A stretch of DNA of 64,000 nucleotides from a bacterium (GCA_023261545.1 JAHFOS010000002.1:62590-126589); one strand, 5' to 3'. Shown: positions 21,867-62,843, numbered from the stretch's first letter. Numbers and translations are program-made. Notes: generated by a model not told the origin, from the sequence alone.

Positions 21867-21917
21867 TTGCCATTCACTTCAAACGAAAACCCATTCCTCG
21901 GGCTGAATTGTGTAGGC

Positions 21918-29212: not shown

Positions 29213-29283
29213 GTAGGGCACCCGGTGGGTGCCCCCCCGGTGGGTGCCCCCCCGGTGGGTGCCCCCCCGGTGGGTGCCCCCCC
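29213..29283. repeat. Tandem 15-bp direct repeat (GGTGGGTGCCCCCCC, about 4.5 copies) in the recA upstream region; G7 tracts on the minus strand
   Basis: cacccggtgggtgcccccccggtgggtgcccccccggtgggtgcccccccggtgggtgccccccc. It is translated as GGHPP repeats in a spurious ORF. Confidence 0.7.
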
Positions 29284-29296
29284 ACAAGGAGCGCCC

Positions 29297-33825: not shown

Positions 33826-33960
33826 CTGTAAGCGTTCAGCCCGTAATTGCCTTCGCATCGCGGCATCAACAACCAGGCCCGTTCGTGCTGAGCCTGTCGA
33901 AGCATGAATGGGCCGAAACCTCCCGCCGTTCACCCTTCGACAAGCTCAGGGCGAACGGCG
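33826..33960. repeat. REP-like double-hairpin repeat element, copy A (~135 bp), immediately after the sucC stop
   Basis: GTAAGCGTTCAGCCC...AGGCCCGTTCGTGCTGAGCCTGTCGAAGCATGAATGGGCC...CCGCCGTTCACCCTTCGACAAGCTCAGGGCGAACGGCG. Each half is a stem-loop, and the two loops are complementary to each other. Confidence 0.55.
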
Positions 33961-34003
33961 AGCGACTTTTCGATAGGGCGGACTACTTGCTGTCGCATTT
34001 TGG

Positions 34004-34891: not shown

Positions 34892-35018
34892 GTAAGCGTT
34901 CAACCCACGGAACGTGTCTTCGTCTTACCACCGGCATTCAGGTCCGTTCTTGCTGGGCTTGTCGAAGCATGAACGGGCCGTGACCGCCCTTGCCGTCCAC
35001 CCTTCGACAAGCTCAGGG
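34892..35018. repeat. REP-like double-hairpin repeat element, copy B, immediately after the sucD stop
   Basis: GTAAGCGTTCAACCCACGG...GGTCCGTTCTTGCTGGGCTTGTCGAAGCATGAACGGGCC...CCGTCCACCCTTCGACAAGCTCAGGGCGAACGGCGG. Confidence 0.55.
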
Positions 35019-35055
35019 CGAACGGCGGGGTACACGCGATGCTTGGGTAAAAAGA

Positions 35056-43444: not shown

Positions 43445-43642
43445 GGGAGTGTCATCTTTATTGTATTTGGATGCACTCACTGCAATCACGGCGCGTCGCC
43501 ACGGCGGGAAAAATCCGTCGCCGACCGCCAATCTCTTTATGAAAAAATACTAAAAATTCTCTCATTAAAAGAATTTCGCTCGCATGTCTCAGCCGCTGGG
43601 ACAGCGCGCGGCGCTGGGCGCGGATCCTCTTAGAAGGGCGTG

Positions 43643-45268
43643 CTAGAACTGCTGCTGCGGATAGGCGCGGACCGGGCTGAAGCGCTCCCAGTGCGTCAGC
43701 ATGTAATCCGTCAGGCAATTGCCGGTCGGCTGGGGGTTCACGCGCGGGTCGGGAAGGCGGATGACCAAACCGGCCTGGGAGTGCAGGATGACGCGATGCA
43801 GGCAGGATGAAGACGTGGTCAAGAGCTGTTTGAAACCGCTGCGACTCGCGCAGGCGCAGTGCAGGTGCTGATCCTCCGCGTCAAACCGGGAAAGATCGCG
43901 GCGGCGCCCGGCGCCATACCAGGTGGTGGGCCCATCGTGAAGCTTCAGGTGATAGGGCGAAGGGTAGAGCAGTTTCCCGCTGCCGGGACGCAGCCGCGGG
44001 CTCAACATCCCCGCGTCCTGGCAGGCCATGTCCAGCAGCGACTCCCAGGAGTCGCGCGCGATGCCGTCCAGCCGCCACAGCTTGAGCGCCCCGCGCAAAT
44101 TCGAAATGGCATTCAGCAAGAACAGGCTCTGCGGGTCTTCCCGCGATCCCGACCCATCCATGCGCGCCCGCAATGCCGCGGATGCTTTTTCCAATCGCGA
44201 CAGCATCCAGGGAACCTCCAGCCCTTGCTGCGGGTCGAAACCCGGGGTGTTCGACCAGTATTCCAAGGCATCGTCATCGCCGGTGTAGCGATATCCCCAT
44301 TTCCCGGGCGCGACCTCGACCAGCTCCCCGCCACCACCCTTTTCCGGGCTTCCGCCGCCTTTCTCAGCGGTCGTCCTGCGATGACGCGCTTTCGCCCCGG
44401 AGCCGCACTGGAAAAGCATCCGCTCTCCGGCCAGCCAACGACTCCTAGCCTGGGCTCCGAAGGTGCTCCAGGGCATCTCCCGGAAATACCACAGCGTCAC
44501 CAGCGCCGGGAGCCCGAAGGCGGTGGCCAGTTCCGGGGATATGTCCGACGCAGACTGGCAGACGACCGCCCCCGGAGCCGCCGCTCTCGTCAGCCAGGCT
44601 GGCAGCGGCACGCTCGTTTCCCGCTCCAAGTCGGCTTCGATGCGAAAACTGCCGTCGCAAGCCAGGTCGGGAAACTCGTGGCTGTTTCCGCTCGCGTGCC
44701 CCAGGACTTTCCCCAGATCGACGTCGCTCCGCCATGGAAGGGTCTGCGACGAGACGATGGCGCAGCCGCCGCGCAACATGGCGTCGAAAAAATCCCGCCA
44801 CCACGGGGGCATCGGGCTATCGGAAACCAGCTCAACGGTCGAGATCTTCTTCGCCAGATCCTCGATGCGCCCGACGGTGCGTTGCATCCTTGCCGCCATT
44901 CCCGGCGGCAGGGCCGCGCCCAGCTTTTCCATCGCATCATCCGGCAGCGTCCCCTCGCGCGCCGCGTAGGCGTGCGCGGAGCCGGGAGCGAAGACGCCCT
45001 GCAACTCCCGGGCGTCGGATGCGCCGACCGCTTCGGCGGCCACCCGAAACGGGTCGCGCGTGCCTGGGAAAGCATCGCGGATCCAGTTCATGGCCATCAC
45101 CACCCGAGCGGCCTGCGGCACCCATACACTTTGCAGGCCCAGGAGCTTGACGACCAGGTTCATGAAGCTCATGGGGGTATAAACCGGCTTAGGCTGAATC
45201 GAGGGTTTGGCGAATTTGACGATGTGCGAGGTGACATAGTCCTGGGTGTGAGAAAAATATACTTTCAT
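43643..45268 (-). CDS. Hypothetical protein (541 aa) of unknown family. Its C-terminal ~45 aa are paralogous to the fragment at 50188-50427
   Basis: Complete ORF, translationally coupled (ATGA overlap) to the upstream 45265 gene. C-terminus SSCLHRVILHSQAGLVIRLPDPRVNPQPTGNCLTDYMLTHWERFSPV matches SSCLRHVILHSMSRLALRLPDPARNAPRPWNCMEGYLRRHWDRVHPV at 50188-50427. Confidence 0.55.
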   Translation of the reverse strand: MKVYFSHTQDYVTSHIVKFAKPSIQPKPVYTPMSFMNLVVKLLGLQSVWVPQAARVVMAMNWIRDAFPGTRDPFRVAAEAVGASDARELQGVFAPGSAHAYAAREGTLPDDAMEKLGAALPPGMAARMQRTVGRIEDLAKKISTVELVSDSPMPPWWRDFFDAMLRGGCAIVSSQTLPWRSDVDLGKVLGHASGNSHEFPDLACDGSFRIEADLERETSVPLPAWLTRAAAPGAVVCQSASDISPELATAFGLPALVTLWYFREMPWSTFGAQARSRWLAGERMLFQCGSGAKARHRRTTAEKGGGSPEKGGGGELVEVAPGKWGYRYTGDDDALEYWSNTPGFDPQQGLEVPWMLSRLEKASAALRARMDGSGSREDPQSLFLLNAISNLRGALKLWRLDGIARDSWESLLDMACQDAGMLSPRLRPGSGKLLYPSPYHLKLHDGPTTWYGAGRRRDLSRFDAEDQHLHCACASRSGFKQLLTTSSSCLHRVILHSQAGLVIRLPDPRVNPQPTGNCLTDYMLTHWERFSPVRAYPQQQF

Positions 45269-45732
45269 GTCGAAGCCTTTTTAGATGAAGTTCGGGGAGG
45301 CGCCTGGAGGATGCCCGCCTTCTGGGCGGCCGCTATGACAAGCTCGCGCGGTAGTGGCGCCGTCAGCCGGAAGGAGTAGTCCGAGTTGAACGGCTCCGGG
45401 TTGCGCCAAGCACGGAAGTACATGGCGGGCACGTGTTTAAGGAGCTGCTCCATGACGATAAGCGAGAAAATTTCCGGCTTCCGGGCCAGCATAGGCGGGC
45501 CGTTCCTGGCCAATTCGTGGTTGTAGCAATGCACGGCTATTCTGAGCGTGAAACGCTCGAGGTCGAATAGCTCGACCTCGTCGGGAAGGTCGGTCAGGCC
45601 TTCCGACAGGAGTTTGTCGTAGAAGCGGTTTAGATGATGGGCATGGGTGTCGGCGCAGGCTGTGGAGCAATAGAAGCCAGCGGGGTCTATGTAGCCGGAG
45701 GAAAACTTCTGGTGGCAGTTATGGCAGTTCAT
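45265..45732 (-). CDS. Hypothetical zinc-ribbon protein (about 155 aa from MNCHNCH; the track ORF extends to 45819)
   Basis: MNCHNCHQKF...YCSTACADTHAHH has a CxxC...CxxxC arrangement. The start at 45732 is preferred because the longer form would begin inside the upstream palindrome. Confidence 0.5.
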   Translation of the reverse strand: MNCHNCHQKFSSGYIDPAGFYCSTACADTHAHHLNRFYDKLLSEGLTDLPDEVELFDLERFTLRIAVHCYNHELARNGPPMLARKPEIFSLIVMEQLLKHVPAMYFRAWRNPEPFNSDYSFRLTAPLPRELVIAAAQKAGILQAPPRTSSKKAST

Positions 45733-45748
45733 GGGTGGGGGGGTGGCA

Positions 45749-45866
45749 GGGCTTACGCATCTAATTTTTTCATCAATAAAATCAATGGGTTGAAAAGTGG
45801 TCGTGGCAGAAAATCGCATAAAAATATGTCAAAACAAAGGCGAATTCAATTTAGATGCGTAAGCCC
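45749..45866. promoter_or_regulatory. Palindromic candidate operator (16-bp inverted arms, ~86-bp AT-rich spacer) immediately upstream of the 45732 operon
   Basis: GGGCTTACGCATCTAA ... TTAGATGCGTAAGCCC is a perfect inverted repeat. The spacer (ttcatcaataaaatcaatgggttgaaaagtggtcgtggcagaaaatcgcataaaaatatg) contains -10-like motifs. Confidence 0.4.
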
Positions 45867-45955: not shown

Positions 45956-46777
45956 GTGTCTAGGAAGTCAAAGGTCAACACCAAAGAATTTAATTTTTTT
46001 TCGGCCAAAGGACTTTTTGTTAAAGAACACGGAGAAATATTGAGGCCGTATGCTAAAATAGTAATTGGTAATTGTAGCAACGAGGCTTCCACCGAGGGTC
46101 TTGTAATTATGAGCGATCCTGGGGGTGCATCAGAAAAGGAGGATGAAAAAGATGATGAGGGTCTAATTAAGGTCGAACCGGACCCGACCATGAAAAGTAT
46201 TTTTGGGCACATTCGTCTGATAAAAATGGAGTGGGACGATGCCACATGGGAAAAAGATTTTAACTTGACCCTTCATATTCTTAATTTGATACCCATTGAT
46301 ACTAAAAATAAATCTGCGTGCAAAACGCTTGCCGATATCGAACAAATGAGGAAAATATTTAAAAAAATACGATTAAATTATGCGAATTATAAATTTTTCT
46401 GGCTTGCATGGGGCTCGAATAAGAAAATAAAAATTAATGATAATTGTGACATAAAGTCTATTGCAGTTACAAAGCCCCCTCGAGATAAAAAAAATTCTAG
46501 TTGCTGTTGTGATGGCGAGGGGAATTTTAATAGTAATCTTTTAGTAATTCATAAAAAATTTGATATTATAAAAGAAAACATTGGGCTTCTAAATTGCTTA
46601 TTGAAGGCTAAAATATATGAAAAAATAGTGGGAGATCCTGGGGAAGATGAATGGGAATCCAGTTGCGCGGATATTGTTAAGAAAACTTGGAGGCACCCAC
46701 TTTCGCGCATGGAGCACACAAATTGGCGTCGAATATTGCACGGCATTTCTCAGGCGTGCTGTCCCCCCGCAAATTAA
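45956..46777 (+). CDS. Hypothetical ORFan protein in a strongly AT-rich (~35% GC) island
   Basis: 273-aa ORF, Lys/Asn/Ile-rich, with no motif recognised. The composition contrasts sharply with neighbours, which suggests horizontal acquisition. Confidence 0.45.
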   Translation: MSRKSKVNTKEFNFFSAKGLFVKEHGEILRPYAKIVIGNCSNEASTEGLVIMSDPGGASEKEDEKDDEGLIKVEPDPTMKSIFGHIRLIKMEWDDATWEKDFNLTLHILNLIPIDTKNKSACKTLADIEQMRKIFKKIRLNYANYKFFWLAWGSNKKIKINDNCDIKSIAVTKPPRDKKNSSCCCDGEGNFNSNLLVIHKKFDIIKENIGLLNCLLKAKIYEKIVGDPGEDEWESSCADIVKKTWRHPLSRMEHTNWRRILHGISQACCPPAN

Positions 46778-46783
46778 TTCTCC

Positions 46784-47113
46784 TCACCTCCCATCCCCAC
46801 TCCCCCCCAAGACCCCGCGGCTCTTCCTTGACCCCAGTTTCGCGAGGTTCCCCGCGGCGACATCCTCCAGGCTGACGCCCAGTTCGCTGGCCATGTTGGA
46901 AAGGTACCAGAGCACGTCGCCCATTTCCTTCATCAGTTCCGGCTTGGCTTCCGCCGTGACCTCCCCTTTGTCGTCGCGCAGGACTTTCTTGATCTTGTCG
47001 GCGACTTCGCCGGTTTCTCCGCACAGCCCTAGGCCGGTGTAGGGGAGGTTCTTGCCCACATCCGGGTAAAACGCGAACTCTCGGGCCTTGTTCTGGTATT
47101 CGGAAAATGTCAT
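46784..47113 (-). CDS. MazG-like nucleoside-triphosphate pyrophosphohydrolase (small all-alpha NTP-PPase)
   Basis: EYQNKAREFAFYP...YTGLGLCGETGEVADKIKK...EMGDVLWYLSNMASELGVSLEDV matches the MazG family EExxE and metal-binding helix pattern. Confidence 0.7.
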   Translation of the reverse strand: MTFSEYQNKAREFAFYPDVGKNLPYTGLGLCGETGEVADKIKKVLRDDKGEVTAEAKPELMKEMGDVLWYLSNMASELGVSLEDVAAGNLAKLGSRKSRGVLGGSGDGR

Positions 47114-47214
47114 GGCGACTCCTTTTTGAATTAGAATGGACAGCGGACAAAACTATTAACGCGGAGACCCAGGACAAAACACGTCCTCGGTCCCATTTTT
47201 TGCAAAATATTTTT

Positions 47215-47350
47215 GTAAGCGTTCAACCCATGAATCGCATCCGCGCATTGTGGCGCCAACCCAGGCCCGTTCGTGCTGAGCCTGTCGAAGCATGAACGGG
47301 CCGCGACCCCACCGCCGTCCACCCTTCGACAGGCTCAGGGCGAACGGCGG
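47215..47350. repeat. REP-like double-hairpin repeat element, copy C
   Basis: GTAAGCGTTCAACCCATGAATCGC...AGGCCCGTTCGTGCTGAGCCTGTCGAAGCATGAACGGGCCGCG...CCGCCGTCCACCCTTCGACAGGCTCAGGGCGAACGGCGG. Confidence 0.55.
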
Positions 47351-47538
47351 GTAGTTCTTTATCATGGCTGAACGCTTACATATTTTTCAAGCGACTATGA
47401 TTCAACTGGTTACGGCGAAAAATAATTCGCTTCAAAACACAACTCTTTTGCCACCCAACCGAGGCTTTCTTGAGCAGCAGGCGCCGGTCCAGGGATGTGG
47501 CGGAACAAAAAGCTGTCCCGCTTATGCTTTTTACACTT

Positions 47539-48825
47539 TCAGAGGCTCCACAGCAGTTTGAGCGGCGCGGCCAGGAGTTGCGGATGCGCCAGGGGCAATG
47601 TGCTGGATCCGGTGTGCAGCACAAGGCCGCCTTGGAAGTCGCGCCCTGCCCGTTCGGCCAAGCGCCGCAAGCCCTGCCCATCGCCGGGACTCACGGTGGC
47701 GGAGGCCTTGACCTCCACGCCCCACACCCTGGCGCCTTGAGTCATCACCACGTCCACTTCGACCTGATCCTTGTCGCGGTAATGCCAGAATCGTAGGTCG
47801 GGATCCGTCCATCCCGCCTGAGCGATCAATTGCTGCACGACGAAAGATTCCAGCAGGTGTCCGAAGCGCGGCCGCTGGGTGAGCCAATCTGCGACCTTGA
47901 GCCCCGCCAGCGTGGCGGAAAGGCCGCTGTCCACCAGATGGACCTTCGGTGTTTTGATGAGGCGCCTGGAAGGATTGCGATGCCATGCGGGCAGGCGACG
48001 GATCAAGAACAGGCGCTCCAGCACCGCCAGATAGTGATCCACGGTGTCGCGATAGAGCTGCAGGTCACCGCCTAGACCGCTGGTGTTGAGCAATTCTCCG
48101 GTGCGCAGGGCCAGCAATTCCAGCAAGCGGTTCAGGTCGTCTTCATGGCGGATCCTGGCGATGTCCCGTACATCCCTTTGCAGCAGTGCGCGCAGGTACT
48201 GCCGGTGCCATTGCCGGGCACGGACCGGATCGCGCGCCACGGGTTCTGGGTAGCCACCCGCTGCGATGCGCGCGGGCAGATCTTCCGTGGGCTCCAAATC
48301 TGGAACTATGTTGGGTTTGAGTCGGCCCGCCAGGAAATCGGCCAGGAAGGCGCCGGGACGGCGCTGCTTCTCGGCTTCGGTCAAAGGGTACAGGGTCACC
48401 ACCTCCATGCGCCCGACCAGGGGCTCATGAACTTGCGGGAGCAACAGCAGGTTCGCCGAACCGGTCAGCAGGAAACGTCCGGGGCGGCGATCCCGATCCA
48501 CGGCCATCTTGATGGCCGGCAGCACATCCGGCGCGCGCTGCACTTCATCCAGCGTCACGAAATCCGGCAGACCGGCGACGAAGCCCGCTGGATCGCCACG
48601 GGCTGTCTGGCAGAGGCTGGCGTCGTCAAAGCTCACATACGCCCGTCCGGGCGCTAAAGACTTGGCCAGAGTTGTTTTACCCGCCTGCCGGGGACCGATC
48701 AAACAGACCGCGGGCGTGTCCGCCAGCGCCGCGCGCAAGGTCGGCTCGATGTGCCGGGGATAGGTGCCAACGTCGGCGTCCATTTGCTGTATATAATAGC
48801 GTCCACTTGTTGGTTTCAAGGCCAT
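47539..48825 (-). CDS. AAA_14 / DUF4143-family ATPase (paralog 3)
   Basis: Walker A CLIGPRQAGKTTLAKSL, Walker B FVTLDEVQR, and the C-terminal DUF4143-like region. Confidence 0.8.
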   Translation of the reverse strand: MALKPTSGRYYIQQMDADVGTYPRHIEPTLRAALADTPAVCLIGPRQAGKTTLAKSLAPGRAYVSFDDASLCQTARGDPAGFVAGLPDFVTLDEVQRAPDVLPAIKMAVDRDRRPGRFLLTGSANLLLLPQVHEPLVGRMEVVTLYPLTEAEKQRRPGAFLADFLAGRLKPNIVPDLEPTEDLPARIAAGGYPEPVARDPVRARQWHRQYLRALLQRDVRDIARIRHEDDLNRLLELLALRTGELLNTSGLGGDLQLYRDTVDHYLAVLERLFLIRRLPAWHRNPSRRLIKTPKVHLVDSGLSATLAGLKVADWLTQRPRFGHLLESFVVQQLIAQAGWTDPDLRFWHYRDKDQVEVDVVMTQGARVWGVEVKASATVSPGDGQGLRRLAERAGRDFQGGLVLHTGSSTLPLAHPQLLAAPLKLLWSL

Positions 48826-49124
48826 CCATTTGCTGGATTTGTGTCCGATCAGCCACCTGCTGTCAAGTAGCGCGCGCCTTGATTTTCAGTTCACGCTGGG
48901 TGAGGACGGAAGCACGGAGTACCCCATGAAAACCTTGAATTTCCTGCTCGCCTCCCTGGGGCGAAACTTCAGAGTTGTTGGTGGCCCTGCAGTTCTTCTT
49001 GAAGGTATTCATCAGCAACACGGAGAAGCCGATGATAGCGCCTTTCGATCCAAGGTCGGCCAGTATGCTCCAAGACATGGAAGCGCCAACGGACAACCCC
49101 TCCGCCGGCTTCGAGACGATCAGC

Positions 49125-49424
49125 ATGCGCGCCGCCGTGGTGGCCGGCAGGATCGCATGGCAACGTCATGCGTTGCAACGCATGGTCGAGCGGGAAATCC
49201 AAAGAAGCTCCGTGAAGTCGGTCCTGCTCTCGGGAGATCTCATCGAGGATTATCCCGGTGCTCGCCCGTTCTCCTCGGCCTTGTTCCTTGGATGGGAAGG
49301 CCATCGGCCACTGCATGTGGTCGTCGCCTTCGATGGTATTTCACGCCAGACCTTTATCATTACGGTTTACGAGCCGACGCTGGCTCGCTTTGAACCTGGT
49401 TTTCGCAAAAGGAGAAGAACGTGA
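49125..49424 (+). CDS. DUF4258-family protein (toxin-like partner of the YgiT-type zinc-finger protein)
   Basis: IAWQRHALQRMVEREI...VLLSGDLIEDYP...LHVVVAFDGISRQTFIITVYEP matches the DUF4258 pattern. ATG at 49125 chosen; the track ORF starts at 48975. Confidence 0.55.
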   Translation: MRAAVVAGRIAWQRHALQRMVEREIQRSSVKSVLLSGDLIEDYPGARPFSSALFLGWEGHRPLHVVVAFDGISRQTFIITVYEPTLARFEPGFRKRRRT

Positions 49425-49657
49425 ATCGGCTCCCCAAAAAAGGCTGTCCCCTGTGCGGTGGGCCGCGACGGAGGGGCACCACCACCTTCACCTGCGATCT
49501 CGGATTTGGTGTTGTGGTCGTCCGCAAGGTTCCCGCCTCCGTTTGCGTCCAGTGCGGAGCGGATTGGATCCCCGACAAAATGGCCGAGCGGATCGAAGTG
49601 CTGGTCGGTGAAGCTCGGAACAAGCGCAGCCAAGTGGAGGTGATGGCGCTTTCTTGA
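49421..49657 (+). CDS. YgiT-type zinc-finger protein (MqsA N-terminal-like), putative antitoxin
   Basis: CPLCGG...TTFTCDLGFGVVVVRKVPASVCVQCGADW has a CxxC...CxxC ribbon with the VxxVPAxVCxxCGE pattern. 4-nt overlap with the upstream gene. Confidence 0.6.
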   Translation: MNRLPKKGCPLCGGPRRRGTTTFTCDLGFGVVVVRKVPASVCVQCGADWIPDKMAERIEVLVGEARNKRSQVEVMALS

Positions 49658-49724
49658 TAACTTGAGACGCGGAGACTGCGAGCCACCACCTTAGCCGCGA
49701 TCCCACTCCGGCGCATTCCTCTTC

Positions 49725-50066
49725 TCAAGGTCGTCTTTTCACCGCTCCGTGCAGATAGTGATCGTGATTGCGCGCGAGGTCCCGAGGCAAGCCTTCAACC
49801 GTACCCGCCAACTCCAGGAGAGCCTCCCATAGCTGGTCGGCCGCCCGACCCGACCCCTTCGGAAGTGAGGAAGCGCGGCCTTTGTCCAAGGGCGATACAT
49901 CCACAGCCAGCCCTTCGGGGAAAAAGGACTTGTTCCTGAGCACAATAACGCCGCTTTTTACTACCCTGCGCGCCGCCGGTTGGCGGGGCCCGGCCCGTCT
50001 CGGTTTCGATGACGCGGAGCGCTTGGAGGTTTTTGGGGTCGCCATGCCCCCATGATAACCCATCAA
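49725..50066 (-). CDS. Hypothetical small protein (113 aa)
   Basis: ORF only. Basic N-terminus; the C-terminus LPRDLARNHDHYLHG is reminiscent of antitoxin tails. Weak evidence. Confidence 0.3.
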   Translation of the reverse strand: MMGYHGGMATPKTSKRSASSKPRRAGPRQPAARRVVKSGVIVLRNKSFFPEGLAVDVSPLDKGRASSLPKGSGRAADQLWEALLELAGTVEGLPRDLARNHDHYLHGAVKRRP

Positions 50067-50187
50067 TAGCGATTTGAAGGGCAGGCGGACATTCCGGCAG
50101 GTGAGGCAAAAGCACTGTCCCTCTTACGCTGGCAGCCCCAGGACCGGGTGACGAGGAAGCAGAAACCTCCGGGAAGGCGGGGCATCC

Positions 50188-50427
50188 TCATATTACATTG
50201 AGCACGGGATGGACCCTATCCCAGTGCCTGCGCAGATAGCCTTCCATGCAGTTCCAGGGCCTCGGTGCATTTCGGGCGGGATCGGGCAACCGGAGCGCCA
50301 GTCTCGACATGGAGTGCAGGATCACATGGCGCAGGCAGGAGGAACGCTCTTGGAAAATCCGGTCCATTTCCATCGGGAAAGCGCAGAGGCAGTCGGGGAA
50401 GACGGCCTCCGTCCCGGGGAGCGGCAT
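50188..50427 (-). pseudogene. Orphan C-terminal fragment paralogous to the C-terminus of the 43643-45268 protein
   Basis: ...SSCLRHVILHSMSRLALRLPDPARNAPRPWNCMEGYLRRHWDRVHPV aligns with the last ~45 aa of the 541-aa protein. No upstream coding continuation. Confidence 0.4.
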
Positions 50428-50472
50428 CCCGCTTTCCCGGACCCCACCGTACCAGAGGGTGTCTTTTTACGC

Positions 50473-51096
50473 TCAAAGAGCACACCATGCGGCTGATTCT
50501 TGGCGGCTATCCAAAACCATGAGCTGACGGCCTTCCTGGTCCGCAAGAACCCATCGCCGCAGATCGATAGTCAACCCCTCGAAATGGATTTCGAAATTAA
50601 CGCTTTGGATCCCAGTGGCAATGACGATATGCGGCTCCCAATCCTCGTCCAGTTCGAAATTGAAACCGGCCTTCTCGTAAAAGTCCCCTTGCAAATCCTG
50701 GTAAAGTGCGCAGAACTCCTGAGATTCGAGATGCCACATCAGCCGGTCGCCCTCGTGGGATAATTTGTCCACGGAGCAACGCAAAAGGAATCTGGTAGGC
50801 TTGTAGCCTCGCAGGACTTCGCCGGCCCTCGCCGGATCGCCCTGGCCAACGAACCAGCGCTTCACCGGCACATGCCAGTGCTCTGGCCTCACCAAGCGGG
50901 CTTTGGGGTTTTCCTTGAGGATCTCGCCGATGGAGTCCACGACCGCTTGGAGTTCCAGGGAGTGGTTACGTTTCTCGAAGACCGGCGTGGCGGCCAAAAG
51001 CCAGCCTTCGTCGGTGCAGCTTGGGTTGCCGCCAGCAACGCGGATGGAGACGTCGAAGGGGAAAGAGCCGGAACGCCACCTCTCTGAAATCGTCAT
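50473..51096 (-). CDS. Hypothetical protein (207 aa), possibly a degenerate 2H-phosphoesterase (LigT-like) fold
   Basis: Two H-x-[TSPV]-x-like sites: RPEHWHVPV and EPHIVIATG, spaced as in 2H enzymes. Speculative. Last full gene of the ATPase operon. Confidence 0.5.
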   Translation of the reverse strand: MTISERWRSGSFPFDVSIRVAGGNPSCTDEGWLLAATPVFEKRNHSLELQAVVDSIGEILKENPKARLVRPEHWHVPVKRWFVGQGDPARAGEVLRGYKPTRFLLRCSVDKLSHEGDRLMWHLESQEFCALYQDLQGDFYEKAGFNFELDEDWEPHIVIATGIQSVNFEIHFEGLTIDLRRWVLADQEGRQLMVLDSRQESAAWCAL

Positions 51097-51100
51097 CTGA

Positions 51101-52216
51101 TTAAACAGTAAACAAGGGCTTTAAAATTTCATGTACTTTGTTGTAACCATTTGCAATTCGCTCGCTCCAACTTTTACCTTCTATGGGTATCGCGATGCCC
51201 CAATGGCGGTCTCTGGTTACTAGCGGCTTATTTATTTTTAGAGAGAGCGCATAGTTCTCAAGAAATTTTCCACTCTCCTTTTTCTTATCAGCAGTTAACC
51301 ACAATAACTCTGGAGTGGAGTTGGTCTCATCACCAGGAAAAATCCAACAGCCAAACCAAAAATCGCTTCCCTTGTCACGGCTCCCCTTGTCACGCAGCGT
51401 ATAACCGCAAGCTATACTGGAACTATATTTTCCACCCATTCCCTTGGTTGCATTAAACCGTTGTATGAAGCCGGGACCGCATTTCAGTCGCTCAATAATT
51501 TCAAAGACAACCCGATCAATCTCAAACAAGCACATGATAAACTTGCCCCTGTTGTCATCAAATTGTGACGTTGATTGCAAAAAATGCGGATCAATATTTT
51601 TCATGACTTCTAGAACCTCCTTTGAGTAAAATGTGCAATTAGTGCGATCTGGCTCGATCCTCGCATTGTTATTTATCGCATTACTAATTAGCTTCTGGAT
51701 ACGCTGCCAGCTAATTCCGACGAAATTAATGGATGGGTGCGCTTCTCCATTGAGGGGGTACTCATCGTTGTTTTCTTCAGCAAGGTGTATGCGCCATTTT
51801 GGTTTGGGGATGGTTGAAAACTGCGCGATATCGATCTTTGGCTTGAGACTTAATTCGGGAGCAATTACGACAAGAGCATTCTTGTCCCTTTTCGGGACAT
51901 CGAGCTCTCCTAAATATTTCCCCGGCTGATCGTCCGTCCATTTTGCGTCAATCTTAGACTCGATGACGACCACAAAATTCTTGTCAACCCATTTAAGATC
52001 ATATCGCCCATCTCCTTTGTCGGTTCCCTGCTGAGTATCGCAAGAGATGGGAGATTCGTTGCCGATTTCTCCCTTTCCTTCATCTTTCCAGATTAATTGG
52101 GCAAACCCTCTTCGGAATTCAGGACAGTACTCGATGAGAAAGGCGAGCGACTCTGTGACCTGATCTTCCGGTTTTGGTCGGCCCAACAGTCGCAGCAAAA
52201 GATGTCGCCGGCTCAT
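51101..52216 (-). CDS. Hypothetical protein with an N-terminal PD-(D/E)xK nuclease-like motif, encoded by a low-GC gene
   Basis: GDGRYDLKWVDKNFVVVIESKIDAKW follows the D...(E/D)xK pattern. The gene is about 40% GC while the flanking genes are above 60%. 52-bp gap to the upstream ATPase gene. Confidence 0.55.
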   Translation of the reverse strand: MSRRHLLLRLLGRPKPEDQVTESLAFLIEYCPEFRRGFAQLIWKDEGKGEIGNESPISCDTQQGTDKGDGRYDLKWVDKNFVVVIESKIDAKWTDDQPGKYLGELDVPKRDKNALVVIAPELSLKPKIDIAQFSTIPKPKWRIHLAEENNDEYPLNGEAHPSINFVGISWQRIQKLISNAINNNARIEPDRTNCTFYSKEVLEVMKNIDPHFLQSTSQFDDNRGKFIMCLFEIDRVVFEIIERLKCGPGFIQRFNATKGMGGKYSSSIACGYTLRDKGSRDKGSDFWFGCWIFPGDETNSTPELLWLTADKKKESGKFLENYALSLKINKPLVTRDRHWGIAIPIEGKSWSERIANGYNKVHEILKPLFTV

Positions 52217-52268
52217 GTTTGGGCACCTCGATACAGCCCTGAATGAGTGTAGAGATCGTGCGTGGTTG

Positions 52269-54473
52269 TCAAAACCCCACCCTCCTTCCCTCGCCCCGAT
52301 CCGCCGCCTCGCGGCGCAGTTCTTCCAGCAGCGCCGGCGTGGTGTGCTCGACTTGACTCAGGCATAGTTTTTGCTGCACGACCTTGAAATCTCCGAAGGT
52401 GAGACTAGCGGGAAAGGCCTGCCTCAAAGGTAGGCTGTCGGCCAGACCAGCTCCGAAGCACCTAGCAAAAAGCGCCTGCGCCTGATCGGGCCGCAGAGGG
52501 CGAAAATTCAGCTTGAAGGCGAAGCGGCGCAGGCTGGCTTTGTCCAGGTGGCCCGGAAAGTTGGTGGCGAAGAGTGAGATGCCGCTGTGCCGTTCCATCT
52601 GCACCAGCAGCTCGTTCACCTGGGTCACCTCCCAGGAGTGCTGGGCGTGCTCGCGCGCGGCGAGGAAGCTGTCGGCCTCGTCAATCAGCAGCAGGGCGCC
52701 GTCTTCCCGGGCTTCCTCGAAGGCATCCCGGATAAGGCTCTCGGTTTGCCCCACCCACTTGCTGAGGAGGTCCGAGGCTTTCTTGAGCAGCAGGCGCCGG
52801 TCCAGGGATGTGGCGAGATACTTGGCGTATTCGGTCTTGCCCGTTCCCGGCGGCCCCTGGAGCAGGATAGCGATGCCGTGCAACTGGCTGCCGGAACGCC
52901 GCGGTGTGTCGAGGAAGCGGCGCGCGGCGGCGAGCACTCCCGCCGGATCGGGATCGGCGTTCACGAACTCCAGGCCGTAAACTCCCGTGGGTTGCAGCAC
53001 GTTTTCGCCCTGGCTGCCCTCCAGCAGGCGCGCCTGGCGCTGCATCACCTCCTCGGCGATGTGCAGGCTTTCCTGGGGATTGGCGGGATCCGCGCAGGCG
53101 CCTAGGACTCTGAGGACCGAGCGGATGTTCGCCGGGCTCAGGGGAAAGCGGGCGCTGTATTCGCGGATGCGTTCGGGGACGATGACCTCGGAGTAGGGCG
53201 AGTCCGCGAGGGCCTGGCGCCACATTTCCTCCTTGGCCTTGGCGCTGAAGCCACGGAATTCGTGGCTGAAGTCGAAACGCCGCAGGGTGCTCTCCTCGAT
53301 GCCTTGGTGGTGGTTGGTGATCCACACGATGCGCTTGCCGTGGGACTCCAGAAACTGGTTGATCCAGCCCTTCTCCAGGGTCGCGCGGGCGGCGAAGGGG
53401 AAGCTCTCCGTGTTCAAGATGCTGTCGGCCTCATCCACCACCAGCAGGTCGTGGCTCGGGTCCATGAAGGCCGCGGCCATGCGCAGCCGGCCCGCCGTCT
53501 CCTGCGGCTTGGCGTGCTCGCATTTGAGGAGCTGGGCGCGCAGCCCGGCCCGCCGCGCCAGGGAGCGCGTGAAGGTGGTCTTGCCCAGCCCCGTGCCGCC
53601 GTAGAAGATCAGGTTTACGCTCTCGCCGGCCCGCCGCAGCAGGTTCAGACAGATATCCTTCATGCGCGCGGGGAGTTGAAAATGATCCCAATCCAAGGTC
53701 TCTCCCTCCAGCGGCTCGCAGGCTATTTCCTGGGGCGTGCGTTTTACGATACCGTTCAGATAGTTCAAAATGTCAGCGGAAAGACTGAAATTTCCCAGGG
53801 GGTCGCTGCTCGCGAAGAAATTCTCGTCCAGCAGGGCGTAACGGCTGAGGTTCCCCCTGATGGAGAAGGCCTCCTCCACCTCCGCCTTCCGGAGCCCATG
53901 GCCGGCGGCGATGAAGGCAGCCAGAAGCCGCTGGCTATGGCTGTTCATGGATTCCGACAGGAAGGTGCTCAACTTCCGGCTGGACGACGTGAGGTAGGCC
54001 GTGTGCAGCACGGCGGACTCGCTTTGCGACAGCCCGAGGCTGGCCGCCAGGGCCTGCATGCGCTTCTTCCATTCCCGCGCGAAGCCGCGGGAACGGCTGG
54101 GCCGCACCACGTTTCGCAGGAAGGACCCCACGCCCTCCGTGAGCCATTCGCCGTCCTCGCCGCGCCCATACTCCAGGATCAGCGTCGCCGGTTCCTTGAT
54201 TTCATGCAAAATCTCGCTGTGCCATTCCTCCGCCACGTCCGTGGTGGCGTGGCCGGCGTCGCTCATCTCCTGGATGAAGCGTTTGCCGAAGTTCTTGTTG
54301 TCGGCCCTGCCCAGGATCAGGGAGAGGCTCAAGAATGCGCCTTCGAGCCCCGCCCTGCCGGCCAGACGCCGCAGCAGGGGACGGGCGATGTCGAGCAGCT
54401 CCTCCCCGCCCTCGTGCAGGCTTTCCCAGATCCCGGAATCCCCGGCTTTCCAGTATTTTCTCCGGATTGTCAT
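52269..54473 (-). CDS. Double-AAA+ ATPase (734 aa): a degenerate first AAA module and a classical second AAA module
   Basis: D1 has LIFYGGTGLGKTTF and LLVVDEADS. D2 has LLQGPPGTGKTEYAKYLA (Walker A), LLLIDEADSF (Walker B), and ASLRRFAF (sensor 2 / arginine finger region). Confidence 0.8.
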   Translation of the reverse strand: MTIRRKYWKAGDSGIWESLHEGGEELLDIARPLLRRLAGRAGLEGAFLSLSLILGRADNKNFGKRFIQEMSDAGHATTDVAEEWHSEILHEIKEPATLILEYGRGEDGEWLTEGVGSFLRNVVRPSRSRGFAREWKKRMQALAASLGLSQSESAVLHTAYLTSSSRKLSTFLSESMNSHSQRLLAAFIAAGHGLRKAEVEEAFSIRGNLSRYALLDENFFASSDPLGNFSLSADILNYLNGIVKRTPQEIACEPLEGETLDWDHFQLPARMKDICLNLLRRAGESVNLIFYGGTGLGKTTFTRSLARRAGLRAQLLKCEHAKPQETAGRLRMAAAFMDPSHDLLVVDEADSILNTESFPFAARATLEKGWINQFLESHGKRIVWITNHHQGIEESTLRRFDFSHEFRGFSAKAKEEMWRQALADSPYSEVIVPERIREYSARFPLSPANIRSVLRVLGACADPANPQESLHIAEEVMQRQARLLEGSQGENVLQPTGVYGLEFVNADPDPAGVLAAARRFLDTPRRSGSQLHGIAILLQGPPGTGKTEYAKYLATSLDRRLLLKKASDLLSKWVGQTESLIRDAFEEAREDGALLLIDEADSFLAAREHAQHSWEVTQVNELLVQMERHSGISLFATNFPGHLDKASLRRFAFKLNFRPLRPDQAQALFARCFGAGLADSLPLRQAFPASLTFGDFKVVQQKLCLSQVEHTTPALLEELRREAADRGEGRRVGF

Positions 54474-54864
54474 CGCGCGCTCCTATTTCCTGTTTTGAAT
54501 CTGGAGCAATTCTAATCCGGACCGTGGACAAATCGTGTCCTCGATAATCCGGCGGGGCCAGAATCCTGGCGGGCGCGGCGGGAAAATCGAAACCGGGGAA
54601 AACTCGAGGCTCGCGGCCTCGGTTCAACAACAGCGCGCTGGATCTCCGCGATCTTGCGATTCGTCCTGGTCAGCGCCCAGCATTTCTCCCAGGATGTCGT
54701 CATGCGGGCCCAGAGGCCGCAGGATGCGTCCTGCGCTGATCGGCTGGAAGAACTCGGCACGCTCACGGCCCACATGCGCCGGCCTACGATAGATTTTGCC
54801 CTGGGAATCGGCTGGGGGTTTCTGGCTCATGGATCTGGCATTTTCGGGATTGTGCTATTGTCCC

Positions 54865-55947
54865 TTAACCCGCGAAGGCCTCGAACAGGGCGGCGCCGGC
54901 TTCGCCGTTTTCCGCTTCTAAAATTGCGAGGCCCCAGCGTTTGCGCTGGCGGCGCAGGGCGAAAAGCAATTCTGCCGCGAGTACCGCGCCCGCCGCGCCT
55001 GGGCAGAAACCCCAGGCCAGGCAGCCGCCGCCGGGGTTGACCCGGTCTTCTTCCAGGCCGAGGGCACGGATGATTCCTAGGGCTGAGGCGGCGGTGAGCT
55101 CGCCCACTTGGAAAAGCGCCACCTCCGCAAGTTCCAGGTTGGCCTGCTTCAGGACCTCGCGGGCGGCGCTCGCCGCGGCGCCCGGGCCCGCGCGCCTGTG
55201 ACTGCCGCACAGGCGGCCCAGGGGTTTGAGGCCGGCTGCCGCCGCTTTTTCGCCCTCCATGAGCAGCAGCCAGGCCGCTCCATCGGCTCCTGGCGCGACC
55301 CGGCGCGCGCCGCCCTCCAGGTTCTCGTCGGCGGCGCAGCGCCAGGGCTTTTCTTCGAAACCGCCGGGGCGGGCGACGCGTTCCGCAGCCTCCAGGGGCA
55401 GGACACAACTGGGCGCCACGCCCGCTTGCGCGCGCGCGCGGCTCAGGCTCGTTTCGCCGTAACGGGTCAACGCCTCCTCGGAGGGATTTTCGCCACCCGG
55501 GGCAGCGCGCAGGAAGGGCGGGAGATAGATGTCCGGCTCCACCGCGGTGATGCGGGGGTGCGGCCCGGCCGGGCGCGCGCGGCTCAGGGACTCGGCCCCG
55601 CCGGCGAGCACGCAAGCCGACTCGCCGAGAGCAATGCGACCGTGCGCCCATACCAGGGCCTCGAAGCTCGACAGTCCCATGCGATTTATTCCCAGGACGG
55701 GAAGTCCGCCCGGCAGGCCGGCGATGCGCGCGGCGGCGCCGGCGGCGGAAAGCACCGGCGCGCTCTCATGGAAAACCCCGCCACAGACGACCTCGTCAAC
55801 CGCCATCCCAACTGGCAAACCGTGTTCGAGAAGCTGGCGCGCGAGCCGACCCGCGATTTCTTCAGGGCGCATCCAGCGCAAGGCCCCGCCCACCCTTGCC
55901 AGGGGACTGCGCGCGGCGGCGGCGATGACGGGAATAAGGAGGCTCAT
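54865..55947 (-). CDS. Thiolase-family (acetyl-CoA acyltransferase-like) protein, highly divergent and very GC-rich
   Basis: MSLLIPVIAAAARSPLARVGG (thiolase N-terminal). C-terminal VNPGGGCLAWGFCPGAAG matches thiolase NxxGGxxAxGHPxGAxG. ATGA overlap with the upstream FadB-like gene. Confidence 0.65.
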   Translation of the reverse strand: MSLLIPVIAAAARSPLARVGGALRWMRPEEIAGRLARQLLEHGLPVGMAVDEVVCGGVFHESAPVLSAAGAAARIAGLPGGLPVLGINRMGLSSFEALVWAHGRIALGESACVLAGGAESLSRARPAGPHPRITAVEPDIYLPPFLRAAPGGENPSEEALTRYGETSLSRARAQAGVAPSCVLPLEAAERVARPGGFEEKPWRCAADENLEGGARRVAPGADGAAWLLLMEGEKAAAAGLKPLGRLCGSHRRAGPGAAASAAREVLKQANLELAEVALFQVGELTAASALGIIRALGLEEDRVNPGGGCLAWGFCPGAAGAVLAAELLFALRRQRKRWGLAILEAENGEAGAALFEAFAG

Positions 55948-60452: not shown

Positions 60453-62843
60453 TTATCCCAGCCGGGAAAGCTGCGAGAGAACCAGGATCGTCAACAGCGT
60501 GAAAAGGGCCAGCGCCCCCCAGGCGAGGATGCGTCCGGCGCGGCGCAGCCGTGATGATTGACGCACGAGGTACAGGATTTCGCTTTCGGTGGTCTCACGT
60601 GCGGTGGCGGCGACGCTGGGGATGTGCCCCTCAGCTTCCGCAGGCTTGGCCTTTCTCCCTTCACTTGTCCCATCACCCATCTTCCCCTCAAAAGAAAACG
60701 GACGGGGTGAAAAGACCGGCGCCGCGGCCATGGGCAATTCACGCGCGGCGACCGTTGCCTGGGTCGCCATCTCAGGGCCGACGGCAGCGCCGGACATCTC
60801 GGGTTCCCCCCTCCCGGGTAAGCGTTCGGCGCTAGAAATCGCTGTTCCCCCGCTCCCTTCGGGAGAGGGATGGGGTGAGGATCTTGGCGCAGGTTGGGGC
60901 AAAGTGGAAGCGCTGCTCTCCCGATCTTTCTCCTCGTCAGCCCCTCGCCTAGAGCCTGACTCAAAATTTTTCCCACCAGCGGCGCCCTCCGCAAAAAGGT
61001 GGTCGGGAAAAAGGCTCCCCGTATCGCTAGCGCGAAATCCACGGAAGGGATCTCCGGCACGTGGAAAGAGGTCGTCTGGCGTGGCCGCGAAGTCTGTATC
61101 CACCTCAGCGCCGAGCTCCGCGGCCTTTTCTGTCTCACCCGCTTCCGAGGCGAAGGCGCGCTGAGAACCTTCGTCCTCCTCCCGCGGAGCCTCTTCGGCA
61201 AACTCAGCTTCCTCGCCCGCCGGGGCCGCCGCGGGCGGCTCTTCGCCAGGAAAGAAAATATCGGAGGTGGAATAGGGGAGGCTCGTGGCCTGCGATGCCT
61301 CTGCTCCCCCTCTCCCAGGTTCCACAGCTTCGTCCGACGCCGCTGTTCTCCCTTTGCCAGGTTGGAGAGCGTCGCTAGACACCTCTGTTCCCCCTCTGCC
61401 TTCGGGAGCGGGACGGGGTGAGGGTCTTGGAGAGGGCTGGAGCGAGGATTCTGGAGAAGGCAGGGCCGAGGTCTCATGGAAACTCTCTGAGGTCTCGTGG
61501 TTCCCCTCGTTGTGCGGGACGACCTCCCCTGCCTCATGGCCCTCCCGCGAAGCCGGCGGCAGCTCCTCACCCAATGGCACCGCAGCGATCTCGACCCTCG
61601 GCGGAACAGGCAGCTCCGCTCCCGCCTCCGGCAACGCCGGCGCTTCGATGGCTGGCGGCAGCAGGCGCCGCGCGGCCTCTTCGTCAAGGAAGGCCGCGGT
61701 CTTCTTCGCCGCCTCCGCTTTTTCCAGGTCGTTCAGGCGCTTCAAAAGCAGCGTGGAATCCCAATAGATGCGCTCCGGCTCGGGCTCCGCCGTTGCCGCA
61801 GCTTCGCTCTCGACGGCGGGGCGTGCCTCGGCCAGGCGGCGCTCGCGCTCCGCTTTCCAGGCCTCGTCCTCGCAAATGAACGGGATGTCAGTTCCCGTGC
61901 AGGCCGGCCTCGGCCAAGGCAGCAAACGCGGTTCCCCTGCTTGCGGCTCGCCGATCTTCTTGAGTACTTGCTCCAGTTGATCGAGTTGCATGGAGCCGTC
62001 GCTCAACGCCGCGAGCCCCGAACGGCAGACTTGGCGCAGGCGATGTTCAGCTCCGGGGTCGGAGGCCGCGGCGCAGATGAAACCTTCCCGCGGACGCGCC
62101 TCGATGATGAGCAAGAGGTTCGGATGGCCACACCCCGTATAGAGATCGAGGAACCCGAGCCGCAAGGCCGCAATCTCCCGTTCGTTGAGCCCCGACCACC
62201 GCCACACCAGCCAATCGCCGTGCTGCTCCGCGGTTTTCTGGCCGCCCGTTGGCGCCGCGGGCGGTCGAAAGTCCCCGAGGATGATATGCAGTAGCCTCAA
62301 CAACGGAGCATCCCGGAGCGCAAAGGGGTAAAGGTTCAGGAAGGCCGTGAGCGCGCCCGCCAGACTTGGCGCCGGCTTGCCGCTGTGGGAGGGGAGCTCG
62401 CGGCCCAGGTTCCAGGCGAGTTCCCCGAGTCCCCCAAGCAAGGGCGTCTTGTGGAACCATTCGGCGAAGCGCTTGGTGCCTTCGGAACTGGTCCAGTCCA
62501 GGATCTGGATGACGTCGCAGCCGAGCATGAAATCCTCCAGTCCGGGGTAGTGTTCCTTCGCCCGGCCCACGCCCCATAGCCACACCCAGTCCGGCCGCGC
62601 GACGATATCGAAAGTCCCCTGCGTGGGCGTCAGCCAGCAGCCCCGTCCCCATTCCTCGGGCCAGGACTCGTTGCCCTGGGTCGGCGCCAGCACCTGCGCC
62701 TGCTGGCCGCTGCGAGCCAGGGTCTCGGCGAGGTAACAAGCGCTGCCCGCGGCCACGGCATCGAAGCGCGCGGGCGGAACGATGAGGTGGCGCGGCGCCT
62801 TCAGCCTTTCGACGAGATCGATGAAATGCAGCCGCCCCGCCAT
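60453..62843 (-). CDS. Hypothetical membrane-anchored protein (796 aa): N-terminal globular domain, long acidic/Pro-rich disordered linker with internal repeats derived from palindromic DNA repeat elements, and a C-terminal TM helix
   Basis: Long ORF. Linker repeats LQPSPRPSPRPAPEGRGGTEVSS and LPQPAPRSSPHPSPEGSGGTAISS are encoded by copies of the CTCCC(T/G)TCGGGAG repeat. C-terminal ILAWGALALFTLLTILVLSQL. Confidence 0.55.
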   Translation of the reverse strand: MAGRLHFIDLVERLKAPRHLIVPPARFDAVAAGSACYLAETLARSGQQAQVLAPTQGNESWPEEWGRGCWLTPTQGTFDIVARPDWVWLWGVGRAKEHYPGLEDFMLGCDVIQILDWTSSEGTKRFAEWFHKTPLLGGLGELAWNLGRELPSHSGKPAPSLAGALTAFLNLYPFALRDAPLLRLLHIILGDFRPPAAPTGGQKTAEQHGDWLVWRWSGLNEREIAALRLGFLDLYTGCGHPNLLLIIEARPREGFICAAASDPGAEHRLRQVCRSGLAALSDGSMQLDQLEQVLKKIGEPQAGEPRLLPWPRPACTGTDIPFICEDEAWKAERERRLAEARPAVESEAAATAEPEPERIYWDSTLLLKRLNDLEKAEAAKKTAAFLDEEAARRLLPPAIEAPALPEAGAELPVPPRVEIAAVPLGEELPPASREGHEAGEVVPHNEGNHETSESFHETSALPSPESSLQPSPRPSPRPAPEGRGGTEVSSDALQPGKGRTAASDEAVEPGRGGAEASQATSLPYSTSDIFFPGEEPPAAAPAGEEAEFAEEAPREEDEGSQRAFASEAGETEKAAELGAEVDTDFAATPDDLFPRAGDPFRGFRASDTGSLFPDHLFAEGAAGGKNFESGSRRGADEEKDRESSASTLPQPAPRSSPHPSPEGSGGTAISSAERLPGRGEPEMSGAAVGPEMATQATVAARELPMAAAPVFSPRPFSFEGKMGDGTSEGRKAKPAEAEGHIPSVAATARETTESEILYLVRQSSRLRRAGRILAWGALALFTLLTILVLSQLSRLG

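Follow-up and report, generated by a model that had tools for sequence, protein, structure and literature searches.

Do three closely packed genes on one strand, in a bacterial genome region rich in defence genes, make up a defence system? The question is raised by positions 50188-54473 of a 64,000-nucleotide (nt) stretch of bacterial DNA (GCA_023261545.1, JAHFOS010000002.1:62590-126589), which we call the window. A sequence-only reading had proposed that a double-AAA+ ATPase, a PD-(D/E)xK-like protein and a degenerate 2H-phosphoesterase-like protein form a candidate defence operon here. Our answer is that the locus is probably, though with some reserve, a juxtaposition of independent modules in a variable island, private to one lineage and co-transcribed, and not a conserved three-gene defence system. 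The parts on which the argument turns are the following.

52269-54473, minus strand: gene of the 734-amino-acid (aa) tandem AAA+ ATPase, from open reading frame (ORF) calls.
53214-53672, minus strand: first AAA+ module (D1) of the ATPase, aa ~268-420, from alignment A1 and the phrog_168 stretch (268-420).
52455-52871, minus strand: second AAA+ module (D2) of the ATPase, aa ~535-673, from Pfam AAA (536-658), the IetA/IteA models (535-673), alignments to Cdc48 and A1.
51101-52216, minus strand: gene of the 371-aa protein with a predicted N-terminal PD-(D/E)xK nuclease domain, from ORF calls and the family alignment.
51851-52204, minus strand: predicted PD-(D/E)xK core, aa 5-122, from the invariant columns of alignment A3.
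50473-51096, minus strand: gene of the 207-aa ORFan with HVPV and PHIVI motifs, from ORF calls.
50188-50466, minus strand: C-terminal gene remnant, an open frame of ~92 codons that includes a 79-aa ORF (50188-50427), from alignment to a 541-aa ORF.
54474-54864, minus strand: 391-nt intergenic region upstream of the ATPase gene, the presumed location of the promoter.

The ORF calls returned the gene structure exactly as first described, with 52 nt between the ATPase gene and the 371-aa gene and 4 nt between the latter and the 207-aa gene. No intrinsic-terminator-like site was found on either strand in 49600-55000, where 6.1 +/- 2.5 are expected from shuffles of the same sequence. Because of these gaps and the absence of terminators, the three genes are probably co-transcribed here. 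The ATPase ATG is preceded at 7 nt by GGAG, and the 371-aa and 207-aa ORFs, which run without interruption, are preceded by plausible ribosome-binding sites. Neither a consensus promoter nor a shared operator was detected in 54474-54864, and sigma-70-like matches in 49600-55000 are confined to the AT-rich 371-aa gene. The same four genes are found in the same order on an independent 5.6-kb metagenome contig, and NCBI, Logan and ENA hold several more contigs on which the same proteins are called.

The co-occurrence search took 82 loci of the ATPase family, translated in all six frames, and compared them with a profile of the 371-aa family and with the 207-, 79- and 113-aa sequences. The family has at least 451 relatives among GTDB species representatives; 80 of these and some other loci, including plasmids, make up the 82 once loci with an incomplete ATPase and one duplicate are removed. 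No member of any of these families turned up; for the 371- and 207-aa proteins the count is 0/82. Searching in the other direction, none of the six loci carrying 371-aa relatives contains the ATPase (0/6), and they have no neighbour in common: one relative stands beside an AbiE pair and the others beside housekeeping genes. Neither a small gene common to the upstream side of the 371-aa relatives nor such a gene resembling the 207-aa protein was found. There being no co-occurrence in either direction, the trio is therefore not a recurring system. The sequence-only reading had itself let its three-gene proposal depend on co-occurrence in other genomes, and on these counts the proposal fails.

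What lies downstream of the ATPase in its relatives is heterogeneous, with 72 Pfam families among the 79 proteins encoded immediately downstream, 37 of which are co-directional with a gap below 100 nt. The closest ATPase homolog (42% identity, locus L002) has DarT and NADAR, and not a nuclease, encoded 495 nt downstream. In that locus, positions 3112-4484 hold the DarT / NADAR-DarT1 pair, plus three unannotated genes (470, 228 and 257 aa).

The three genes also differ in composition. The ATPase gene has a G+C fraction of 0.646 and a G+C fraction at third codon positions (GC3) of 0.84; the 371-aa gene has 0.445 and 0.47, and the GC3 of the 207-aa gene is 0.69. In the composition profile of the window, the 371-aa gene stands out as an AT-rich island. 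The mosaic origin suspected from the start is thereby confirmed: the 371-aa gene was horizontally acquired and is compositionally foreign, and its import is recent, given a GC3 of 0.47 against 0.84 in the ATPase gene.

The other end of the cassette bears the mark of a rearrangement. The open frame at 50188-50466 aligns to residues 448-533 of a 541-aa ORF at 43643-45268 (38% identity, E = 2e-17). By this alignment, the 79-aa ORF is what is left, at the C-terminal end, of a gene paralogous to the 541-aa one, which bears out its description as an orphan C-terminal fragment. The homology begins no more than ~10 nt from the 207-aa stop codon; there is therefore a rearrangement breakpoint at the downstream end of the cassette. 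The rearrangement removed the rest of the 541-aa paralog, and the cassette abuts its truncated 5' end. The intact copy and an adjoining regulator gene, to which we return below, are located as follows.

43643-45819, minus strand: 184-aa and 541-aa genes, overlapping by 4 nt and read in the same direction as the WYL gene, the second of them being the remnant's intact paralog.
42461-43531, minus strand: gene of a 356-aa regulator with winged helix-turn-helix (wHTH), WYL and WCX domains (HTH_11, WYL, WCX), the sole WYL gene in the window.

The 184-aa and 541-aa proteins match no Pfam or PADLOC family and have no relatives in the 82 ATPase loci.

What kind of ATPase is it? Pfam AAA (PF00004) matches the 734-aa protein in two stretches at 123 bits against a cut-off of 21.2 (1e-35), with D2 at 536-658, and the match to AAA_5 is weak at 28.6 bits. 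In alignment A1, which consists of the window ATPase and ten full-length relatives, D1 displays a Walker A motif GGTGLGKT (G292-x2-G295-x-G297-K298-T299), a Walker B motif VVDEAD (D347/E348), sensor-1 N387 and R398/R399. D2 displays Walker A GPPGTGKT (K546), Walker B IDEAD (D598/E599; IDEADS), sensor-1 N638 and R649/R650. The Walker A lysines, the Walker B acidic pairs, the sensor-1 residues and the paired arginines are invariant in A1, with E348 nearly so. The initial description of two AAA modules, the second of them canonical, is thus upheld, and D1, having kept its Walker A, Walker B, sensor-1 and R398/R399, is not degenerate either. D2 in addition has a pore loop, K572-W573-V574-G575, which aligns with the KMAG/MWYG loops of Cdc48; G575 is invariant, and W573 and V574 are kept in at least 90% of the A1 sequences. 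No aromatic pore loop is present in D1 in this alignment. An aromatic-hydrophobic-Gly pore loop marks the polypeptide-threading machines of the classic AAA+ clade. The rest of the protein varies in its N-terminal part (aa 1-~265) and, towards the C-terminus, has a conserved T-x-G-D-F motif and a final G-F; phrog_10401 covers nearly the whole length (aa 128-706, 5e-65). In a PDB search, D2 aligns to both rings of Cdc48/p97/VAT at ~1e-29. Its best matches are Cdc48/p97, FtsH, PAN and IetA. From the intact motifs of both rings and the KWVG pore loop of D2, we infer that the ATPase would be a double-ring hexameric protein remodeller or unfoldase and not a McrB-like DNA motor with DNA-dependent GTPase activity. 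The sequence-only reading had likened the locus to McrBC-type pairing of a motor with a nuclease, while finding the ATPase itself not McrB-like; the latter observation stands, and the logic of a DNA motor gives way to a classic-clade D2 with a KWVG pore loop. The ATPase family is large, widespread and so far unnamed and uncharacterised. It is found in Spirochaetota, Fibrobacterota, Lentisphaerota, Planctomycetota and Pseudomonadota, with full-length relatives also on plasmids of Proteobacteria and Desulfobacterota, and literature searches on it together with WYL or RtcB turned up no paper that describes it.

The 371-aa protein passes the Pfam cut-off for PDDEXK_4 (PF14281) marginally, at 23.7 bits against 22.3, over residues 50-119 and positions 65-128 of the 183 in the profile. 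In alignment A3, made up of this protein and ten relatives (11 divergent sequences), D73, E86 and K88 (as E86-S-K88), Q97 and Y101 are invariant, and E17, T21, G70 and R71 nearly so. The core thus follows the pattern of an E17/E22 helix, D73, E86-x-K88 and Q97-x3-Y101, with the signature G-R-x-D-[LI] ... [IV]-E-x-K ... Q-x3-Y that is also that of PDDEXK_4. Eight of the 11 family members match PDDEXK_4, the best at 4e-8, and hhalign places the catalytic motif in register with that of a bona fide PDDEXK_4 protein (E = 2.7e-4). The ORF is full length relative to its family. These motifs make it a predicted true PD-(D/E)xK nuclease of PDDEXK_4-like type with an intact active site, as the N-terminal D...ESK arrangement had first suggested. 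A conserved YGF...WFGLW marks the C-terminal ~200 residues, for which no matching family was found. The subfamily is very rare. A word-indexed search of 5.8 billion clusters returned the protein itself only, an exhaustive HMMER scan of 1.84 billion cluster representatives gave ten distant relatives of 286-388 aa, and a 5-sequence alignment used in metagenome and viral scans added two new loci only. No relative was found in the PDB by sequence or profile, nor any match in PHROGs, NCBIfam or PADLOC, and the single-sequence AlphaFold2 model has a mean confidence score (pLDDT) of 32.7. We infer that the protein acts as an autonomous Mg2+-dependent DNA-cutting effector that normally stands alone.

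The 207-aa protein is an ORFan. No relative appeared in the word-indexed search of 5.8 billion clusters, and nothing was found in the PDB, Pfam (E <= 10, including the 2H models), PHROGs, NCBIfam or PADLOC. His75 (in WHVPV) and His156 (in PHIVI) are 81 residues apart, and both motifs are without the Thr/Ser that defines H-x-[T/S]-x (H-V-P-V and H-I-V-I). A profile of the 2H protein ThpR, built from nine annotated or tblastn-identified sequences, gave a weak match of 1.8 bits that ranks 7th of 1001, since 6 of 1000 shuffles score higher. The single alignment reported by HMMER does set WHVPV and PHIVI co-linearly on the two HxTx motifs of the profile. The single-sequence AlphaFold2 model reaches a pLDDT of 32.9. 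The protein may have a degenerate 2H-like fold; the assignment to the 2H phosphoesterases, for which the two motifs had first been cited, shrinks to a weak hint.

If the nuclease is not the regular partner of the ATPase, what is? Neighbour clustering and a WYL profile place a wHTH-WYL-WCX gene in the examined flank of 29 of the 82 ATPase loci. It is adjacent (<400 nt) in 19 of the 82, either divergent upstream or co-directional downstream, and in loci flanked by 3 kb or more on each side, it is present in 20/46. Sigma-54 activators occur in seven ATPase loci, and at least three of them are bona fide RtcR (up to 4e-237 with the PADLOC RtcR models). Further recurrent neighbours are DUF2779 (5 loci), RtcB, ADP-ribosylglycohydrolase and MoxR-DUF2201 (3 loci each); RtcR and RtcB are less frequent than WYL. 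Relatives of the ATPase beside RtcR, the RtcB ligase, DUF2779, ADP-ribosylglycohydrolase and MoxR-DUF2201 were seen in loci L008, L045, L074, L026 and others, and annotated plasmids with the ATPase have Y-family polymerase, Pol II and AddAB-like genes nearby. The RtcR/RtcB-type neighbours suggest a link of the family to RNA or DNA damage responses besides defence islands. Defence and damage responses are known to be controlled by WYL and CARF regulators, which sense ligands (PMC4012209, PMC9122601, PMC11662680), and WYL regulators such as CapW sense single-stranded DNA and DNA damage (PMC11662680).

In the window, the WYL gene, which the sequence-only reading had passed over, is 8.7 kb downstream of the ATPase gene and is the last gene of the 184/541-aa cluster. 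Within the loci retrieved, its product is most similar to the WYL proteins encoded next to the ATPase in L027, L034 and L012 (6e-49 to 3e-28; 34%, 29% and 26% identity, respectively), and the corresponding ATPases are ~32% identical to that of the window. Comparison of the upstream regions of the ATPase, 184-aa and WYL genes for a shared operator yielded nothing beyond 9-mers. The ATPase and WYL genes are probably an ancestral pair, now 8.7 kb apart by displacement.

How, then, should the locus as a whole be read? According to the reading we favour, that of independent modules brought together in one lineage, an ATPase of native composition would, as a hexamer of two rings, take hold of a protein substrate and thread it in the manner of Cdc48-, VAT- and IetA-type ATPases, and it would be expressed within a damage- or infection-sensing regulon. 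The AT-rich nuclease gene would have landed between the ATPase gene and the 207-aa gene. As the trio is probably co-transcribed but private to its lineage, any functional coupling would therefore be recent and local. Several observations pull the other way. Tight spacing on one strand without a terminator-like site has the look of a functional operon. Defence systems often swap effectors, and missing co-occurrence does not prove functional independence here. The gene calls in the relatives' loci are crude, being simple longest-ORF picks, although the co-occurrence search worked on translations of all six frames, and the loci of the 371-aa family are few (six), several of them on short contigs. 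A PDDEXK_4-type gene (5e-30 to Pfam) occupies position -1 in L039, another lies ~6.5 kb from the ATPase at the end of the L055 locus, a weak match is found at +1 in L038, and a PD-(D/E)XK gene falls within the ATPase-WYL interval of a Methylomonas plasmid. The WYL gene of the window may simply regulate its own 184/541-aa cluster, and the unfoldase and nuclease activities are predictions from sequence motifs. The spacing and the lack of a terminator are also what would be expected of an integrated ATPase-effector defence system private to this lineage, in which the AAA+ ring would sense or remodel a phage or host protein and license the nuclease or, antitoxin-like, restrain it, with the 207-aa protein as adaptor or inhibitor and with interchangeable downstream effectors. 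Such a system would suit the defence neighbours found here or at relatives (AbiE, DarT-NADAR, a Card1-like gene, PD-T4-6 and PDC) and the 37/79 downstream neighbours that are co-directional at less than 100 nt. It also has precedents in IetAS, where an AAA ATPase is paired with a toxic enzyme (PMC13069673), and in type III-A CoCoNuT loci, where CDC48-like tandem ATPases adjoin PD-(D/E)xK-fold proteins (PMC11090510). We nevertheless judge it unlikely, because the genes do not co-occur either way, the nuclease gene is recent by composition and has relatives that stand alone, no effector theme runs through the family's downstream neighbours, and the DarT-NADAR genes of L002 are a self-sufficient module 495 nt away from the ATPase.

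The recurrent neighbours of the family (WYL, RtcR, RtcB, Y-family polymerase, Pol II, RecC, an AddAB-like helicase-nuclease, ADP-ribosylglycohydrolase and MoxR-DUF2201) raise another option, that the ATPase is not anti-phage at all and belongs to a WYL- or RtcR-controlled stress response to nucleic-acid damage or for RNA repair, remodelling stalled or damaged protein-nucleic acid complexes while the nuclease and ORFan hitch-hike. The sensing of single-stranded DNA and DNA damage by CapW-type WYL regulators (PMC11662680) accords with such a role. Many relatives, however, are found among canonical defence genes, on plasmids or on prophage-like elements, and WYL and CARF regulators control defence too (PMC9122601, PMC4012209). 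One role does not exclude the other, and we consider a repair role in place of defence distinctly unlikely. It is very improbable that the ORFs downstream of the ATPase are decaying or non-functional insertions, or mis-calls arising from rearrangements, which would leave the ATPase as the sole working gene. The adjacent remnant and breakpoint, the copy of a 44-nt piece of the ATPase gene elsewhere in the island (see below), the ORFan status of the 207-aa protein and the failed structure predictions would fit decay. Against it, the 371-aa ORF is full length compared with its family and has all catalytic residues intact, both ORFs are uninterrupted behind plausible ribosome-binding sites, and the proteins are called on further contigs.

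With the trio read as a lineage-private juxtaposition, most of its force as a candidate three-gene defence system is lost, since it occurs in one lineage and one member is recent. The general point is that operon-like tight spacing in a defence island does not alone indicate a system. Interest passes to the very rare PD-(D/E)xK subfamily with its new C-terminal domain and to the ATPase family, which could reasonably be screened for a part in defence or stress responses in view of its strong association with WYL and RtcR, regulators that sense ligands. A speculative proposal, to which we give low credence, is that the tandem ATPase and a wHTH-WYL-WCX (or RtcR/CARF) regulator are the core of an undescribed, widespread system induced by damage or infection. 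A Cdc48-like unfoldase would there act on a phage or host protein, and the adjoining slot would take interchangeable effectors: here the rare nuclease and the degenerate 2H-like protein, and DarT-NADAR in the nearest relative.

The surroundings are those of a variable island of ~12 kb, at about 42.4-54.5 kb, with the ATPase trio at its edge. A thiolase/FadB-like housekeeping operon borders the upstream region of the ATPase, which therefore lies at the island edge. The interval between the ATPase and WYL genes contains, besides the nuclease gene, the ORFan, the remnant and the 184/541-aa genes, a stretch of cargo and one copy of a repeat whose other copy is inside the ATPase gene.

45956-50066, both strands: variable cargo separating the ATPase and WYL clusters.
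52772-52815: genic copy of a 44-nt exact direct repeat, in ATPase D2 at codons 553-568, ATSLDRRLLLKKAS.
47459-47502: intergenic copy of the same repeat, just after the PDC-S01 gene.

The cargo comprises an AT-rich 273-aa gene (plus strand), MazG (minus), REP-like palindromes, an AAA_14/DUF4143 gene of the PDC-S01 type (minus), a DUF4258 gene with a zinc-ribbon 78-aa partner (plus) and a 113-aa ORF (minus). There are two AAA_14/DUF4143 paralogs, at 47539-48825 and 8158-9408, both on the minus strand, and the island copy matches the PADLOC candidate PDC-S01 at 2e-154. The DUF4258/zinc-ribbon pair, MazG, the AAA_14 paralogs and the REP-like palindromes agree with the defence-island setting originally described. 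The 273-aa gene (45956-46777, plus strand) is the second strongly AT-rich gene of the island (G+C 0.37, GC3 0.35). Its protein gives only sub-threshold hints, to YfjL_C and PIN_11, and the gene, too, probably came in recently from a donor of low GC.

The 44-nt repeat appears to be real. We considered whether its copies might be attachment (att) sites of an element that replaced the 3' end of the ATPase gene, and rejected this since the flanks are unrelated and both GC3 and homolog identity run continuously across the repeat. A structured or known small RNA was likewise set aside, there being no Rfam match and folding z-scores of -0.8 and -0.3. An assembly artefact was rejected too, a contig of another sample ending exactly 30 nt into the repeat; if k was 31 in that assembly, this fits a branch of the assembly graph at that point. 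If the plus strand at 47459-47502 is transcribed, it would give a perfect 44-nt antisense to the ATPase mRNA. Other repeats were seen in the window. REP-like palindromic elements lie at 47261-47351, 33870-33962, 34933-35029 and 21803-21871 (e.g., GCCGTCCACCCTTCGACAGGCTCAGGGCGAACGGCGGG); one pair forms a hairpin beside the MazG gene, and Rfam AaHKsRNA41 matches these elements weakly, below threshold. At 381-3251, a unit of ~680-790 nt with internal sub-repeats of 52-79 nt occurs four times in tandem (77-92% identity); the gene there presumably encodes a highly repetitive surface protein. Five to seven copies of a 15-nt tandem repeat, CCCGGTGGGTGCCCC, lie at 29191-29295, and an 89-nt element with a GGGAGAGGG-type hairpin occurs three times (40548-40636, 60802-60890 and 61345-61433; 75-84% identical).

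How does the locus compare with known systems? In PADLOC-DB v2, the ATPase has partial matches only, the 371-, 207- and 79-aa proteins have none and no named system is called, in keeping with the original impression that the locus matches none. Like Cdc48, p97 and VAT, the ATPase combines in a single chain two AAA+ modules that each have Walker A and B, sensor-1 and arginine fingers, and it has a D2 pore loop. Unlike Cdc48, it reaches 58.5 bits with the CDC48 model (TIGR01243), whose cut-off is 802.65, and is matched in D2 only; no Cdc48 N-domain was detected, D1 is without the pore-loop aromatic, and the protein has its own variable N-terminus, the T-x-G-D-F ... G-F end and WYL as genomic partner. 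IetA of IetAS (Gao_Iet), likewise of the classic AAA+ clade, is its best PADLOC and NCBIfam match (4e-28 and 4.7e-28, respectively). That match, however, is confined to D2 (535-673), at 98.4 bits against an equivalog cut-off of 510 for NF042959, and IetA, whose profiles span 262-395 positions, contains one AAA module as opposed to two. IetA occurs in defence and plasmid-stability contexts; one account presents IetAS as a defence system of toxin-antitoxin type, with an acquired helicase among its essential parts, and refers to a serine-protease/AAA-ATPase system of pTiC58 (PMC13069673). No protease family in Pfam or PADLOC, such as an IetS-type subtilase, was found among the ORFs scanned in 45956-54473.

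The remaining parts compare in a similarly partial way. The 371-aa family differs from other PDDEXK_4 nucleases in its added ~200-aa C-terminal domain and its ~10 detectable, divergent members, and the 207-aa protein shares two His motifs with the 2H phosphoesterases (ThpR/LigT) but misses the Thr/Ser of both. The 356-aa regulator has the domains of the CapW/BrxR wHTH-WYL-WCX regulators, and the same class stands near the ATPase family elsewhere; it differs in being 8.7 kb from the ATPase as the last gene of another cluster, and no operator was identified for its putative control of the ATPase. With McrBC and type IV systems, the locus shares an NTPase gene followed by a PD-(D/E)xK nuclease gene. 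It differs in that the ATPase is of the classic clade and its pore loop of the polypeptide type, the nuclease does not resemble McrC and the pair is non-recurrent; no McrB or McrC model is among the PADLOC hits. In type III-A CoCoNuT loci, a CDC48-like tandem ATPase adjoins an inactivated PD-(D/E)xK-fold protein; only the C-terminal ATPase domain has Walker motifs, the ATPase continues into a C-terminal leucine-rich repeat and beta-barrel, and McrBC-type CnuB/C are present (PMC11090510). The window shares with them a tandem Cdc48-like AAA+ gene adjoining a PD-(D/E)xK-fold gene in a conflict locus. Unlike them, its ATPase has both rings intact and no C-terminal fusion, its predicted nuclease site is intact, and it has no McrB/C-like gene. 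CoCoNuT is the closest published analogy to this locus, one that differs from it in every defining detail.

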